Shown here piece after piece: positions 22,446 to 29,546 of a DNA stretch of 64,000 nucleotides. Numbering within the stretch: the stretch's first letter is position 1; every line of letters begins with the position of its first letter. The stretch spans positions 2,848,001 through 2,912,000 of the forward strand of contig CAVRAY010000001.1 in assembly GCA_963719225.1 (NCBI GenBank), in the 5' to 3' direction. The notes beneath the pieces are model-generated. The model searched no databases and was not told the origin of the DNA. It saw only the letters and a program-made list of their open reading frames with translations. The stretch comes from Thermoanaerobaculia bacterium (GTDB taxonomy: Bacteria; Acidobacteriota; Thermoanaerobaculia; UBA5066). The position numbers were made by a program, and so were the translations under genes.

Positions 22446-22452
22446 CGCGCGC

Positions 22453-24720
22453 TCAGGAGCAGAGGGCCGACAGAGCCCGGGAAGCGCGGTCGATCTTCCG
22501 GTAGACGGGGATTCCGCCGCGCTGGAGGACGGCGACGAAATCGTCGTAGAGGCGTCCGGAGTCGACGTTCACGACGAGCGGCTTCTTCGTCGCGCGGAAG
22601 AGGCGCAGCAGCTCCTGGGCGAGCGCGCCCTTCGAAAACAGGTTCTCGGAGTGCGCCCCGAAAGGATCCGGCGCGAGGATGTCGAGCGACGGCGTGACGG
22701 GGATCGGAGACACGAGAAGGGAATCCACGCCGGGATCGTCGAGGAGCGCCGCCGCCGCTTCCACGAACGCGGGTGTCTCCGCCATGGGCGTCGCGTCGAT
22801 GGGGTTCGTCGCATGGGCGATGGCCGGAAGGCACGCGCGAAGACGGGCGAGCGTCGGTTCCGCGAGCGTTGCCGGCGTCAGGCCGTAGAGCTTGTCCAGA
22901 ACGGCCGCGCATTCGAAGCCGGCGTTCGAGAGCACCGCGAGACGCCGGCCCGCGGGCAGCCGGTCGCCGAGCATCGTATAGGCCTTCGTGTAGTCCTCGA
23001 ACATGTCGAGCGACTGCGCGACGAGAACGCCCGCACCCTCGAGAAGCGCTTTCGCGACCGCATAGTCGCCGGCGAGCGAAGCCGTGTGGCTGCGCGTGGC
23101 CTCGGCGCCGAGCGCCGTCTTGCCAGCCTTGAAGAGAATGACGTGGCGTCCCTCCTGCGTGACGCGGCGCGCCACACGCGCGAACCGCTCTCCGTCCATC
23201 GGCGCGAACCCTTCGACGTAGAAGACGAGGAGGCGGATGGTCGCGTCGTCGGCGAAGTACTCGAGGAAATCCGCCGCAGTGAGATCCATCTGGTTGCCGT
23301 ACGAGATCGACGCGCGGGGGAACACGATGCCGTCGAGGTTGCTCGTGAGCGAGACGAGGTACGCCCCGCTCTGGCTGACGGCCACGAGGCCGTCGCCCGG
23401 CGCGTCGTGGAACGGCAGCTTGTACTGAGGAAGGAAGAAGGTGTTGTACTGCCTCTTCGAGACGATGCCGAGGCAGTTGCCGCCCACGAGCACGGGCCCG
23501 CCGTCCGGCCTCGCGTGCGCGGCGGTCAGGGTTCCACGGAGTCGCGCTTCGAGATCGGCGTGGCCCGCCTCGCCGAAGCCGCCCGGAATCAGAATCACGG
23601 ACTCGGCTCGGCCGCGGGCGAGTGCTTCCACGACTTCCGTCGCCGCGGGGGCCGGCACGGAGACGACGGCGAGGTCGACTCTCTCGGGCAGAGCGTCCAC
23701 GGACGGGACGCATGGCACGCCGTCGATCGATTTCTCCTGCGCGTGGACCGCGAAGAGGTGGCCGTAGGCGATGCCGTCGGACTGCTTGAGGTTCCGGAGG
23801 ATGATCCGGCCCGGGTTCATCGCGTGTGCGGAAGCGCCGATGACTGCGGCGCTCCGGGGGGCAAGGAGTCGAGAGATCTTGGAGAGGGGACGCGGCGAAA
23901 GAGCAAGGCGCCGGGAGGAGATCCGCGCCTTCCCGTCCGCGACCACCCATCGCCCATCCGTCGTGAGCAAGAGCGGGTTTACTTCCAGTTCTTCAAGAGT
24001 CGGATTGCCCAGTGAGTTGTCAGGAGAATAGGAGAGAAGATTCTTAGAGAGGTTTTCGAGGCGAACGGCCACCTCGTCGAGCACGAGCGGCGCCTGCGCC
24101 TGCCCTCTATTCCTTTCAAAGAAAATCTTCAACGCCGGATTCTTCTCGACTCCAGCCCGGAGGCCCCGCTCCACCTCTCCGGGCTGCAAGATCACAGTCG
24201 TCGCCCCCGGCGCAAGCTCGCCGTACCACTCGGTCAGAACGCCGCCGAGGCCGAAGACGAGGACGGGCCCGAACGCGGGGTCGTGCTTGAAGGAGAGGAG
24301 CGCCTCGGCCGCGGGTGTGCCGGAGGCGGGAACGAGCTTCTCCACGACGAGGATCCCGAGGCGCTGGGCTGCGGGCCCTCGGCGGGAAACGTTTTCCCAC
24401 ATCGTCCTCGCCGCAGCGATGACCGACGCAGGAGATTTCTTTGAAAATGAGAATCCGCCGACGTCGGACTTGTGGGCGAGATCCGGTGAGACGATCTTGA
24501 GGACGACTTCGTCCCCTCTCGACCCTTCTAAGAAATCTTCAATCTCCGTGGGCACCAGCCCCGGCGCGCCGCTCCAGAAGACGTGTCGCGGCACGTCGAA
24601 GCCCGCCGCGCCGAGCAGCGCGTAGACCTCGTGCTCGAAGAGCGTCGCGCGGCCGTCCGCACGCGCCTTCCGGAGGATCGCCGCCGGTGAAACGGCGTCT
24701 ACCGCGGCCGCTCCGCTCAT
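22453..24720 (-). CDS. ADP-forming acetate/acyl-CoA ligase, beta-alpha fused order
   Basis: N-terminal ATP-grasp (LKIVSPDLAHKSDVGG, LEVNPL), then CoA-binding (AVIGAS, GGNCLG, SQSG, SHTASLAG). Confidence 0.9.
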   Translation of the reverse strand: MSGAAAVDAVSPAAILRKARADGRATLFEHEVYALLGAAGFDVPRHVFWSGAPGLVPTEIEDFLEGSRGDEVVLKIVSPDLAHKSDVGGFSFSKKSPASVIAAARTMWENVSRRGPAAQRLGILVVEKLVPASGTPAAEALLSFKHDPAFGPVLVFGLGGVLTEWYGELAPGATTVILQPGEVERGLRAGVEKNPALKIFFERNRGQAQAPLVLDEVAVRLENLSKNLLSYSPDNSLGNPTLEELEVNPLLLTTDGRWVVADGKARISSRRLALSPRPLSKISRLLAPRSAAVIGASAHAMNPGRIILRNLKQSDGIAYGHLFAVHAQEKSIDGVPCVPSVDALPERVDLAVVSVPAPAATEVVEALARGRAESVILIPGGFGEAGHADLEARLRGTLTAAHARPDGGPVLVGGNCLGIVSKRQYNTFFLPQYKLPFHDAPGDGLVAVSQSGAYLVSLTSNLDGIVFPRASISYGNQMDLTAADFLEYFADDATIRLLVFYVEGFAPMDGERFARVARRVTQEGRHVILFKAGKTALGAEATRSHTASLAGDYAVAKALLEGAGVLVAQSLDMFEDYTKAYTMLGDRLPAGRRLAVLSNAGFECAAVLDKLYGLTPATLAEPTLARLRACLPAIAHATNPIDATPMAETPAFVEAAAALLDDPGVDSLLVSPIPVTPSLDILAPDPFGAHSENLFSKGALAQELLRLFRATKKPLVVNVDSGRLYDDFVAVLQRGGIPVYRKIDRASRALSALCS
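24034..24540. repeat. Four copies (two inverted pairs) of the dispersed motif inside the acyl-CoA ligase gene
   Basis: GAAGATTCTTAGAGAGGT (about 24036), CCTTTCAAAGAAAATCTTC (24112), GAGATTTCTTTGAAAATGA (24432), ACCCTTCTAAGAAATCTTC (24522). Confidence 0.75.
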
Positions 24721-25006: not shown

Positions 25007-26428
25007 TCAGTTCGGAGCCGGCGTGACGGATCGCATCCCCCAGGAGAAGGCCTCTTCGTTCAGGGGAATCAGCGCGCACTTGTCCTTGAGGGCGAGGCGA
25101 ATGGCGGTGCGGAAGGTCTCGGCGGGAAAGAGCCTCGTCGCGGCCTGGAGCGCGCCGAGCGCGACGATGTTCTTCACCATCGCCTTGCCGAGGTCCACGG
25201 CGATCTCGGTGAAGGGCACGCCGAAGACGCGCACGCCGTCGCGGAACGCGGGCGGGTTCTTCACGACGGAGCTGTCGTAGAGGATGGTCCCGCCGACCGG
25301 CACGTCCGGAGCGAACTTCGCGAGGCTCGGGGCGTTGAACGCGACCAGGATCGCGGGATGCGGAGATGCCGGCGACAGGACCTCGTCGGCGCTCACGTGC
25401 ACGTCGGCGTACGAGGTGCCGCCGCGCGACTCGGGCCCGTAGCTCGGGATGTGGGTTGCGTCGTAGCCCTCGTGGATGGCCGCGCGCGTCAGGAGCATCG
25501 CCGCCGTCTGCGCGCCGTCGCCTCCCGCGCCCGCGAGCTTCAGGGCGATGTCCGTGCCGCCGAGATGCGTGGGGAATCCGGCCGCGAAGCGCTCGGGGCG
25601 CTCGGCGGAAGCTCCGATCGCCGCGAGGAGGCTCTCGGCGTCGAAGCGCGGCTTCCCGAGGTGGAACGAGGGCTCTACGACGACGTCCTTCTTCACGCCG
25701 AGCGGGAAGACCGGAAGCATCTTCTCCTTGACCCAGCGCTCCGTCTCCTCGGGCGTCATCCCGAGGTGCGTCGGGCATTCGGCGAGCACCTCGACGAACG
25801 CGAGGCCCCGGTTCTCGGCCTGCAGTTTCACGGCCTTCAGGATGGCTTTCTTCGCCTTCATGCGCTGCTTCGCGTCGAAGAGCGCGACACGCTCGACGTA
25901 CACCGGCCCGTCGAGCCCGGCGACGAGCTCGGCCATCTTCATCGGCTGCCCCATCATGGCCGTGCGGCCTGTCGGGCTCGTGGCGCTCTTCTGGCCGATG
26001 AGCGTCGTCGGCGCCATCTGGCCGCCGGTCATCCCGTAGATCGCGTTGTTCACGAAGATCACGGTGATCGGAGTGCCGAGCTGCGTCGCCGAGACGATCT
26101 CGGCGAGGCCGATGGAGGCGAGGTCGCCGTCTCCCTGATAGCTGATCACGACCGCTTCCGGATTCGCGTACTTGTGGCCGAGAGCTACGGCCGGCGCGCG
26201 CCCGTGGGCGGCCTGCGAGTTCCCGACGTCGAAGTAGTAATAGAGGAAAACAGAGCAGCCGACGGGCGAGATCGCGACCGTGCGGTCCTGGATGCCGAGC
26301 TCCTCGATCGCCTCGGCGAGGTACTTGTGCGCGAGCCCGTGTCCGCAGCCGGGGCAGTAGTGCGTCGCGTGGCTCTTCAGCCCTTCTCCGCCCGCGTGGC
26401 GCTCGAACTTCTCGTAGAAGACGCTCAT
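25007..26428 (-). CDS. 2-oxoacid:ferredoxin oxidoreductase beta-gamma fusion (Vor-type)
   Basis: YCPGCGHG, GDGD...NN TPP motif, YGMTGGQ; gamma motifs GAGGDG and SYGPESRGG. Confidence 0.93.
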   Translation of the reverse strand: MSVFYEKFERHAGGEGLKSHATHYCPGCGHGLAHKYLAEAIEELGIQDRTVAISPVGCSVFLYYYFDVGNSQAAHGRAPAVALGHKYANPEAVVISYQGDGDLASIGLAEIVSATQLGTPITVIFVNNAIYGMTGGQMAPTTLIGQKSATSPTGRTAMMGQPMKMAELVAGLDGPVYVERVALFDAKQRMKAKKAILKAVKLQAENRGLAFVEVLAECPTHLGMTPEETERWVKEKMLPVFPLGVKKDVVVEPSFHLGKPRFDAESLLAAIGASAERPERFAAGFPTHLGGTDIALKLAGAGGDGAQTAAMLLTRAAIHEGYDATHIPSYGPESRGGTSYADVHVSADEVLSPASPHPAILVAFNAPSLAKFAPDVPVGGTILYDSSVVKNPPAFRDGVRVFGVPFTEIAVDLGKAMVKNIVALGALQAATRLFPAETFRTAIRLALKDKCALIPLNEEAFSWGMRSVTPAPN

Positions 26429-27816
26429 GCCGGCACCTCCTGGGAAACGCGGACGGCCGCGGCGATCTCGGCCGCCTGCGGCAGGATGCCGCCCGAGTGC
26501 CGGACGCTTTCGATGGCGGGCGGCGCGACGCCTGCCTTCGAGAGGGCGAGGCGAAGCTCGTCCTCGAGCTGGCCGTTGCTGGCTTCGACGACGAGGATCC
26601 TCTTCACGTTGGGCAGGAACGCTTTCAACGCGGCGATGGGGAACGGCCACAGCGTGACCGGACGAAAGAGGCCCACGGGCACGCCCTCCTTGCGCAGCGT
26701 CTCGACCGCGCCCTTCGCCATCCGCGCCGGCGTTCCGAACGCCACGACGAGGGTCGTCGCGTCCGAGCAGGCGAACGCGTCGGACCTCTGCTCGGCTTCC
26801 ATGCGCTTGTATTTCTCGTTCAGGTGCGCGTTGTGGCTCTCGAGATCCTTCTCGTCGAGGTAGATCGAATTGATGAGGTTGCCGCGGTGGGCGGCGTCGC
26901 CGAAGACCGCCCAGTCCGGAAGGCCGGGCTGGATCATCGTGTCCGGGAGCACGACCTTGCCCGTCATCTGTCCGAGGTAACCGTCCGCGGCGATGACGAC
27001 CGGATTCCGGTAGCGGAACGACAGCTCGAAGGCAAGCCGCGTGAGGTCGAGCATTTCCTGCGGCGTCGAGGGGGCGAGGACGATCGCGTGCGTGTTTCCG
27101 TGGCCGAGGCCGCGGCACGCGAGCTTCACGTCGGCCTGCTCGGGGGCGATGTTTCCGAGGCCGGGCCCGCCGCGCATCACGTTCACGAACACGCCCGGCA
27201 CCTCGGCGCCGATCATGTAGGAGATGCCCTCGAGCATGAGGCTGAAGCCGGGCGACGAGGTGAACGTCATGCAGGGAAGGCCTGCGCCGCCGCAGCCGTA
27301 CATCATGTTCACGGTCGCGACCTCGCTCACCGCCTGCAGGAAGACGCCATCCAGCTTCGGCATCAGCTTCGCCATCAGCTCGGCGCCTTCGGTGGAAGGC
27401 GTGATCGGATAGCCGAAGACGTGACGGCAGCCTGCGACGAGCGCGCCGATCGCCGCGGCGTAGTTGCCTTTCAGGACGAGCGGCGCGACGGACGGCAAGG
27501 GAACTTCTCGAGGAGGAATGGGCGCCGGTCGGGGCGGGGCCGCCCGGGTTCCGAACAGCTTTTCCGGGTCCTGGAGCTCGAAGTCGCCTTCCGGCTGCGG
27601 CCTCAAGCCGTATGGCTCGGGGCACGCGTCGAGACACAGCCCGCAGCCGTTGCAGGCCTCGAGATTCAGCGCGACCGGCACGAGGCCCGTTCGCGGATCG
27701 ATCTCGCGGCCCGCCGTGATGCAGTCCTTCGCGCACGCGTCGATGCAACGGCCGCAGCCTTTGCAGAACTCCGGCAGAAGGAAGGGTTTGGGGCGTTCCC
27801 TGAGCGCAGTGGGCAT
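26425..27816 (-). CDS. 2-oxoacid:ferredoxin oxidoreductase ferredoxin(delta)-alpha fusion (Vor-type)
   Basis: CKGCGRC...C and CNGCGLC...CP; GYPITPSTE, TSSPGFSLM and RGGPGLG motifs; SD GGAGG. Confidence 0.93.
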   Translation of the reverse strand: MPTALRERPKPFLLPEFCKGCGRCIDACAKDCITAGREIDPRTGLVPVALNLEACNGCGLCLDACPEPYGLRPQPEGDFELQDPEKLFGTRAAPPRPAPIPPREVPLPSVAPLVLKGNYAAAIGALVAGCRHVFGYPITPSTEGAELMAKLMPKLDGVFLQAVSEVATVNMMYGCGGAGLPCMTFTSSPGFSLMLEGISYMIGAEVPGVFVNVMRGGPGLGNIAPEQADVKLACRGLGHGNTHAIVLAPSTPQEMLDLTRLAFELSFRYRNPVVIAADGYLGQMTGKVVLPDTMIQPGLPDWAVFGDAAHRGNLINSIYLDEKDLESHNAHLNEKYKRMEAEQRSDAFACSDATTLVVAFGTPARMAKGAVETLRKEGVPVGLFRPVTLWPFPIAALKAFLPNVKRILVVEASNGQLEDELRLALSKAGVAPPAIESVRHSGGILPQAAEIAAAVRVSQEVPA

Positions 27817-28055: not shown

Positions 28056-28427
28056 ATGAGACAGCTCCGCCGCGTGTACGTTTCATCCTTAATTCCGAAC
28101 CTTCTCGTGGCCGCCACCGTCGCCTGTGCGCTCGCGCTGCTCACCCTCCCGCTTTCAGCCGCAACCGGCGAGGCCCTCGTCACGATGGGTCCGTGTCGCG
28201 CCGTGGATACGCGGGGCCCGGCGGGGCCGCACGAGCCTGTGATCGTGAGAATCCGGGTCTCGTTCGCGCCGAGCGCTGGACCTCCGAGTGGCCCCTCTGC
28301 GGAATGCGCCGCCCCGTAGACGCGGCTCGCGTCCGGAAGTTCATGGAAGCCCTCGTGCGACCGGTGCCGCGGCGTCACCCGCGTAGAGCTGCGCGTATCC
28401 GGCGGCCGTCGGGTCGACGACCGTGAC
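28056..28427. pseudogene. Rearranged remnant of a secreted PCRxxDTR-domain protein (pieces on both strands)
   Basis: Plus strand: signal peptide then PCRAVDTRGPAG. Minus 28295-28223: GPLGGPALGANETRILTITGSCG. Minus 28427-28356: VTVVDPTAAGYAQLYAGDAAAPVA. Confidence 0.7.
28304..28355 (+). pseudogene. 5' fragment of a probable nucleotidyltransferase (DUF6036-like) gene
   Basis: MRRPVDAARVRKFMEAL overlapping ...AECAAP*; family assigned from memory of such gene pairs. Confidence 0.5.
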
Positions 28428-28429
28428 GG

Positions 28430-28675
28430 TTCGAATGAAACGAGCCGCCGGATCAGGGCGTTGTAGCGCGAATGGGCCGAGTTCGGATCGGAGAGCGCGA
28501 GGAGCGCGTAGAGCCGATCCTTGGGCGATGAGAGGGGCTCGGGGATCTGGAGACCGATTCGCCGAAGGCGAGCCGCACCGATCGAAACGAGAAGCGCTTC
28601 CTGAGAATCGACCGCGCGAGAGAGGTCTTCGATCCCTCGTGCGACGAATTCGGCCCCCGGCAGATTTTCGGTCAC
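28430..28675 (-). pseudogene. Small conserved hypothetical protein whose C-terminus is displaced by an inversion
   Basis: MTENLPGAEFVARG...AHSRYNALIRRLVSFE; expected end (AECAAP*) is on the plus strand at 28299-28319; TATCAT 6 nt upstream. Confidence 0.65.
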
Positions 28676-28706
28676 AAACCGATGATACGCGGCGCTTCGT
28701 GGCCGG

Positions 28707-29546
28707 TCAGAAGGGCCTGAAGACTCGCACGGAGCCGCTGCGACCCTCCTCGCCCGCCGTCGCGACGAAGAGGCGCCCGTCCGGGCTGAACGCCAGCGCG
28801 ACCGGCGGGCCTTCGCCGCCCGGCGAAAACGAGCGCACCCTTTTCCCTTCGTTGTCGAGCTGCGTCAATTCGCGTCCCTCGATCGCCCAGGCGCCGCCGC
28901 CGGGCGCCGTGCGGCAGATGACGGCCTGAAGGCGCGCTCGCGCGCACGGGCCCCCAGGGAGATCGGGCTTCTGCACGGGCTGCTGTTTCACCTCCGCGGC
29001 GCCGCGCCCGTCGAGAGCGCACCGGACGATCCGTCCCGAGGCGTCCGTGAGGAAAAGCGAGCCGGAGTCGACGGCGATGCCCGTGGGATTTCGCGCGCCC
29101 TCGACCTCGAACGCTCCTACCTCCGCAACGCCGCTCACCGCCCCGAGAATCACGACGAGCGAGGTCTCGGGAGAGAACGCGACGGGAGAGGCCCGGAAGA
29201 GCTGCCCCGCCACGTCCGTCTTCTTCCGGACCCGGTCCCAGGCGGGCGGCGCGCCCGCGGAGGCGTCGATCGGGTGCGTCGTCTCGCGTCCGCCTTCGTG
29301 CCGCGTCTCGGTGACGGAGACGAGGTCGATCCTCGGCGAAAGGACGTCGCCGTCCGTCTCGTTCGCGAGGCGCACGGGCGTGACGAACGTCCCGCCGATC
29401 AGGTCGGCACCTTCGAGCGAGAGAACGAGCGCTCCCTTCACGCCGGGCACCTTCAGGGTGAAGCGGTCGATCGGAACGGACTTTCCGCCCTCCGCGAGCG
29501 CGATCGCGAAGGCCAGACCGGCCGTGGCGAGGGAAGTCGTTGCCAT
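28707..29546 (-). CDS. Hypothetical exported protein with NHL/beta-propeller-like C-terminus
   Basis: Hydrophobic N-terminus; NPTGIAVD..LFLTD and PVALAFSPDGRLFVA repeats. Confidence 0.65.
   Translation of the reverse strand: MATTSLATAGLAFAIALAEGGKSVPIDRFTLKVPGVKGALVLSLEGADLIGGTFVTPVRLANETDGDVLSPRIDLVSVTETRHEGGRETTHPIDASAGAPPAWDRVRKKTDVAGQLFRASPVAFSPETSLVVILGAVSGVAEVGAFEVEGARNPTGIAVDSGSLFLTDASGRIVRCALDGRGAAEVKQQPVQKPDLPGGPCARARLQAVICRTAPGGGAWAIEGRELTQLDNEGKRVRSFSPGGEGPPVALAFSPDGRLFVATAGEEGRSGSVRVFRPF

Follow-up and report, generated by a model that had tools for sequence, protein, structure and literature searches.

A short locus in the 64,000-nucleotide stretch of Thermoanaerobaculia DNA analysed here (the window) may be the remnant of an estimated 8-11 kb deletion in which two short flanking blocks were inverted, and we give about an even chance to an origin inside the cell, through a single chain of template switches when a replication fork stalled. 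The scramble is real in the assembly, and probably in the cell as well. It is a one-off complex deletion scar of an already known mutation class, and likely the result of a single replication or repair accident in one lineage, not of a gene-shuffling system.

Judged against intact relatives, positions 28056-28695 of the window consist of five pieces in the order and orientation A(+) B(-) C(+) D(-) E(-) (Table 1). Two blocks are inverted, namely B (about 70 bp) and C together with D as a single unit of 134 nt, and the four joints are packed into 203 bp. Within piece C, the final 7 codons and the stop of a small gene (28296-28319) overlap the initial 17 codons of a DUF6036 gene (28304-28354), and piece E also includes the upstream edge of this two-gene module, at 28695. 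An earlier note, made from the letters of this DNA, had proposed three interleaved genes disrupted by two adjacent inversions and a deletion. Comparison with intact relatives bears this out: the strand switches between segments are confirmed at the DNA level far beyond chance, all five peptides listed in the note are present in the frames it gave, and its piece limits hold overall after small edits (for example to the limits of B and D). Both the secreted-gene locus and the small gene/DUF6036 locus are dead, and the scrambled product has no function. With regard to the longer of the two by-product frames in Table 1, a random frame of 180 codons lacks stops in 29% of cases in this genome.

Table 1. 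Pieces, joints, by-product frames and flanking genes of the scrambled locus (window coordinates).
Feature	Position	Strand	Description
Piece A	28056-28228	+	5' end of a large gene for a secreted protein, comprising a signal-peptide-like start and the first part of an unnamed ~120-aa domain
Piece B	28226-28295 (coding 28294-28226)	-	following 23 codons of secreted gene, inverted in place
Piece C	28295-28355	+	inverted; small-gene tail overlapping DUF6036 start
Piece D	28355-28428	-	24 more secreted-gene codons, inverted along with C
Piece E	28429-28695 (gene 28675-28430)	-	small helical-protein gene minus its final 8 residues
Joint 1 (A/B)	28226-28228		3-nt overlap
Joint 2 (B/C)	28295		1-nt overlap
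Joint 3 (C/D)	28355		1-nt overlap; deletion joint viewed from the inverted strand
Joint 4 (D/E)	28428-28429		blunt, or 5-nt inverted overlap plus one extra G (loose end of X1 contig; G008)
Chimeric by-product frame, 87 aa	28056-28319	+	A, antisense B and small-gene tail; no functional sign
By-product frame, 262 aa	27887-28675	-	open across all four joints
Left flank	26428-27816	-	2-oxoacid:ferredoxin oxidoreductase subunit gene; intact; syntenic in relatives
Right flank	28707-29546	-	NHL/SSL-repeat-like gene; intact; syntenic in G007, G011, G017

Intact counterparts were sought at the DNA level, first in 41 genomes and next in the 29 genomes of the genus that were available; none of the conclusions depends on G025. 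They were found, and the order predicted in the earlier note holds in them. Pieces A, B and D, which the note had read as consecutive parts of one secreted protein, are colinear on one strand in intact relatives (order seen in L019, L021, L064 and L065), with a spacing of 32 nt between B and D in all four homologues measured. In genome G005 (L019), a secreted protein of 1770 aa with He_PIG repeats opens with A, B and D on one strand, and the same order is found in loci of G017, G020 and G001. The ~120-aa domain that begins in piece A (compare L019:3878-4270) has no Pfam or NCBIfam match, and the Atlas gives unnamed clusters only. It has 31 matching loci in the present genome (G000), and three other copies are apparently frameshifted.

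Likewise, E continues directly into C on one strand (L016, L017, L018, L027, L029), in agreement with the proposal that these two pieces encode a small protein followed by a DUF6036-like nucleotidyltransferase. In G008, G004 and G023 the small gene of piece E leads into C, whose final part begins a 175-aa DUF6036 protein (PF19502, E 1e-7). Piece E shares 90% DNA identity with G008 over 267 nt (E-value 1e-102); for piece C the value is 95% over 61 nt (E-value 1e-21), and 95-96% to G008 and G004. The homology of E stops at 28692-28695 in three relatives.

Independent evidence that flipping two blocks restores the original order comes from sequencing run X1, which contains relatives' DNA only. 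The un-flipped joints A-B (28222->28295) and E-C (28299->28429) are each present there in one contig at a depth of 2-3. A contig of the same run is 100% identical to D over 74 nt, and its flanks carry on the secreted gene.

The distance from the start of the secreted gene to the next conserved gene is 7.8 kb in G017, 8.9 kb in G008 and 11.0 kb in G007. From these sequence distances we estimate that an island of 8-11 kb is missing from the locus, a deletion far larger than was visible in the letters from which the earlier note was made. The remainder of the DUF6036 gene, about 470 nt, is missing as well. In relatives the island comprises the rest of the secreted gene together with tail-collar, GNAT and DUF6916 genes. 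Searches with tblastn for the collar, the Ig-repeat body and this particular DUF6036 protein gave no match elsewhere in this assembly; a distant DUF6036 member lies at C1:2540824. We infer an ancestor in which the secreted-protein island converged on the small gene-DUF6036 pair at this slot, an arrangement of which no single relative has both parts there. The right end of E coincides with the natural edge of the module in three relatives. In G011, the corresponding slot, adjoining the NHL-like gene, is taken by a different small two-gene module. These observations make it likely that the module was inserted whole, and earlier. A homologue of that G011 module is found in the present genome beside a tmRNA-like gene (G000:C2:609107-609644).

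The parental flanks at the joints were taken from relatives, which stand in for the true ancestor. On this basis, 32 nt was lost between B and D, and the remaining break ends were reused with near precision: 0-1 nt was lost at C/E, and up to 6 nt was doubled at A/B, which creates at joint 1 a 6-bp inverted repeat with 28290-28295. For random joins in this genome, the probability of an overlap of at least 3 nt is 0.077 per joint, and an overlap of 5 nt in one or more of the four joints, when an offset of one base is permitted, has a probability of 0.12. The overlaps of 3, 1, 1 and 0 nt (or 5 nt with a slip) thus fit random joins, so that microhomology is allowed by the data and not demonstrated. 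Of the microhomology-mediated template switching suggested in the earlier note, the template switching stands as the leading mechanism, and a role of the microhomology, with overlaps not above chance, is no more than possible. The additional G of joint 4 is unlikely to be a sequencing error, given that the approximately 188 kb covered by both relatives contain about 25 lone extra bases; this base is readable as a signature of either template switching or end-joining.

The gene dnaA lies at C2:325.8 kb, the skew peaks near C1:2.0-2.1 Mb, and skew is negative in all 10 bins from 2.0 Mb on, although weak in the bin of the locus (-0.004). Taken together, the position of dnaA and the skew suggest that the fork likely crosses the locus from right to left in the window, so that the new leading strand would be the minus strand. 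Under the template-switching model, this strand would first copy E and then, at joint 4, where the overlap is best, jump to the opposite template. It would there copy back D and then C, to within 0-1 nt of the stall point. A second jump would lead to the copying of B, after which the strand would rejoin its original template no more than 6 nt from the second entry point. Joint 3, the deletion, could be part of this chain or could predate it; in the latter case, the remaining switches would all lie within about 240 nt. Seen along the path of the fork, the longest overlap belongs to the first switch (joint 4), and the inverted copy stops at the position of the stall.

Several features of the locus are those of multi-joint template switching as described for stressed Escherichia coli. 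There are four joints, and B, D and C are drawn from the two ends of the deleted interval; the inversions are nearly reciprocal in the losses and gains given above. Studies of stressed E. coli report almost reciprocal inversions with small losses and gains, deletion joints with 1-4-bp overlap (PMC3161906), a 1-bp insertion beside a joint, and template switches across 7-32 kb (PMC1428787). Common to these events (long-distance template switching/MMBIR) and the present locus are several joints per event, an almost reciprocal inversion, deletion joints in the range of 1-4 bp and a one-base insertion. The E. coli events differ in that they have kilobase inverted parts and amplification-joint overlaps of 4-15 bp (PMC1428787) or 3-30 bp (PMC3161906), and arose under laboratory selection, whereas the present inversions measure about 70 and 134 bp, the four joints fall within 203 bp, there is no amplification, and the genome is a natural one. 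Block B alone also resembles the product of the four-point "3-1-2-4" template switch, the output of which is a short inverted repeat around an inverted spacer (PMC5453318), as B is an inverted spacer bounded by a short inverted repeat that arose in the event. That model is a single out-and-back switch and explicitly excludes successive rounds (PMC5453318); in the present case a further inverted block and the loss of several kilobases come before the return.

Some observations count against template switching. Two joints share 1 base, which is below the overlaps reported for amplification joints (PMC1428787, PMC3161906). The pieces are single-copy, and at two breaks both ends are used again; end-joining would predict this just as well. 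Furthermore, none of the new joints occurs in any read or second assembly searched.

The sequence does not cleanly separate template switching from end-joining, although we consider the former, at about an even chance, the more probable of the two. A repair by Ku and LigD would start from double-strand breaks clustered at two sites that lay 8-11 kb from each other, with three fragments of 60-74 bp re-ligated in inverted orientation and the middle lost. We regard this as unlikely but deserving of serious consideration. The genome has 2 Ku and 2 LigD Prim-Pol matches, over cut-off and free of internal stops, and the joints are near-blunt, compatible with end-joining at three of the four; the extra base at joint 4 would suit LigD. 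Every retained piece being single-copy, and the reuse of both break ends at A/B and C/E, are in line with such a repair too. On the other hand, about five cuts would be required, in two tight clusters, with all three fragments inverted. It is on such ground that PMC3161906 disfavours end-joining for complex events, though in E. coli.

Ku/LigD repair in bacteria typically yields a simple deletion or a small addition at a single break. Bacterial end-joining and eukaryotic chromothripsis have in common with the present locus the near-blunt joints, a possible added base, and single-copy fragments in a new order and orientation, and the locus differs from chromothripsis in scale (hundreds of bases, not chromosomes). 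The literature searched, outside of which most subscription papers lie, holds no direct precedent for a chromothripsis-like or end-joining filler event in a natural bacterial genome. That a bacterium with Ku and LigD stitched fragments of 60-74 bp back inverted and shuffled, as a miniature chromothripsis fixed in a natural chromosome, is a rather unlikely reading.

A library artefact is also rather unlikely as the origin of the scramble. Here, an amplification or ligation chimera would have entered the consensus at a thinly covered spot, and living cells would keep the intact island. Of the amplification or assembly chimera considered in the earlier note, we retain the chimera at the level of reads; misassembly of the graph is unlikely, since overlaps of 0-5 nt appear insufficient to cause a misjoin in a k-mer or overlap graph, and polishing of the consensus presumably does not invert sequence. 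The absence of any independent carrier of a new joint from the data searched would suit an artefact. The arrangement occurs in none of 28 genus relatives (14 of which have any match), and runs X2 and X3 contain none of the new joints. No exact match to the joint-2 pattern was found in genome_contigs or viral_contigs, none to the piece-D pattern in metagenome_contigs, and none in plasmids, in searches that may omit very near records. Moreover, no sequencing run searched contained half of the words of this stretch, no RNA data set was listed as containing it, and contamination of the genome is estimated at 6.2%. Piece E, which differs from G008 by 13 synonymous and 9 non-synonymous codon changes, is without decay, so that nothing dates the event to before sampling.

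Chimeras from whole-genome amplification are described in a preprint (bioRxiv 10.64898/2026.06.11.730069) as mostly local and inverted, which again would fit. However, the same source reports thousands of false inversions and fragmented assemblies for amplified libraries, and the present genome consists of 2 contigs, is 97% complete and shows no second case in 1.51 Mb. In addition, the missing island genes are found nowhere else in the assembly, and random ligation in a mixed sample would not draw all three pieces from the opposite ends of a single interval.

The figure of 1.51 Mb derives from an opposite-strand scan of 1.2 Mb of G007 and 1.08 Mb of G003 against the genome, with an aligned union of 1,514,118 of 4,750,048 bases (32%). 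The scan detected 111 of 120 planted 65-nt inversions and no second comparable scramble, in a comparison nearly blind in accessory DNA. G007 and G003 did not reveal the scramble under study; positive controls recovered the event in three of five relatives' loci. Fourteen opposite-strand rows were returned, of which 2 are whole-gene flips, 6 are intergenic-repeat matches and 6 are short matches inside long open frames. At a coarser scale, 200 blocks of at least 3 kb show the assembly to be colinear with relatives: no local strand change and 5 distant jumps were seen.

Elsewhere in the genome, a segment of about 130 nt made up of a tRNA-Gln gene and the region upstream of it (G000:C1:3835846-3835976) is oppositely oriented in G000 and G003 and intact in both, and the flipped segment adjoins copies of an intergenic repeat. 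This AT-rich, REP-like repeat has a 9-nt core with 273 occurrences in G000 on both strands, and its orientation often differs between relatives. A 28-codon membrane-peptide gene in a variable region (G000:C1:2331313-2331444) is flipped whole relative to G007.

Across the genus, the small gene-DUF6036 module occupies three gene-end slots within about 7 kb (window 22451-22453 and 28695; L017, L018, L016), and no transposase was seen near these slots. The module is 90-95% identical to the G008 copy, as against 84% for the neighbouring core interval, which, together with the shifting slots, suggests on sequence grounds that it may be exchanged between lineages. Excision of the module from the site after pyrG, occupied in G008 and G004, was considered and rejected, as this site is equally empty in all four relatives with printed sequence. 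The elevated identity and the three positions would also speak for arrival of the module on foreign DNA, in which case the scramble would be the footprint of an illegitimate integration into the island. This we consider very improbable, in view of the natural module edge at the right end of E in three relatives and the other two-gene module of G011 in the same slot.

An invertase or shufflon-like system that shuffles the pieces on purpose is very improbable: two adjacent inverted blocks and a secreted-protein domain with as many as 31 matching loci might bring one to mind, but the joints lack long inverted repeats (the only one, of 6 bp, was created by the event itself), no recombinase is found among the 11 neighbouring proteins scanned (20.5-35.5 kb, with two small hypothetical genes at about 22.3 and 24.9 kb outside the scan), both loci are destroyed instead of yielding alternative intact products, the arrangement does not recur among the 28 genus relatives, and mixed-strand matches are absent from the other 30 paralogous loci. 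The unknown shuffling activity raised in the earlier note thus finds no sites, no recombinase and no second case.

Relatives of the small gene of the destroyed module are spread over many phyla. Among 160 loci, 143 carry DUF6036 downstream of it, in full in 132 and short in 11; a further 11 of the 160 are without DUF6036 despite room, and 6 end at a contig edge. DUF6036 is thus lost or cut short in 22 of the 154 loci with room. The two genes overlap by about 13-16 nt in 92 of 114 pairs. The module is widespread across several phyla (L017:3597-4381 in G008, L016:5500-6296 in G023, and loci L167-L326).

The DUF6036 protein was modelled with a pLDDT of 95.6. In its best alignment, with MenT1, the model reaches Z 9.1 at an rmsd of 4.0 over 158 residues and 17% identity; ANT(2'')-Ia follows at Z 8.5, which is within 1 Z unit and hence a tie. 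Foldseek lists MenAT1 for this model at E 0.041. The modelled nucleotidyltransferase fold is MenT-like, tied with antibiotic nucleotidyltransferases. Sequence and profile searches of the PDB gave nothing meaningful for DUF6036, the module proteins have no NCBIfam or PADLOC match, and DUF6036 is named in no paper of the literature searched. For the small protein there is no clear structural match (best Z 4.7), and the Atlas gives unnamed clusters only.

MenA1 is a small helical protein encoded upstream of MenT1 (PMC10435456), and the module shares with this pair a small helical-protein gene upstream of a nucleotidyltransferase, the model of which aligns to MenT1. The module differs in its Pfam family, which is DUF6036 and not DUF1814; a DUF1814 domain is absent, and Pfam gave only PF19502 (DUF6036) at E-values up to 0.01. 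Based on gene order and modelled fold, the putative pair likely works like a toxin-antitoxin pair, and the label "TA-like" used in the earlier note appears plausible. The small gene together with DUF6036 is a candidate for an undescribed toxin-antitoxin family.

As a single dead locus, the scramble offers no new enzyme or system, and its value is that of a data point on mutation mechanism and a template for a wider scan of long-read genomes. If real, it would be a natural rearrangement with several joints, resolved to the base, of a type for which stressed E. coli and eukaryotes are the main known sources. It would leave behind open chimeric frames that are liable to annotation as genuine genes by gene callers. 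If end-joining were true, this repair would be an overlooked route by which soil bacteria shed accessory islands and toxin-antitoxin-like modules and make chimeric frames in one step. If the scramble is real, one accident can remove an island together with a likely toxin-antitoxin pair.
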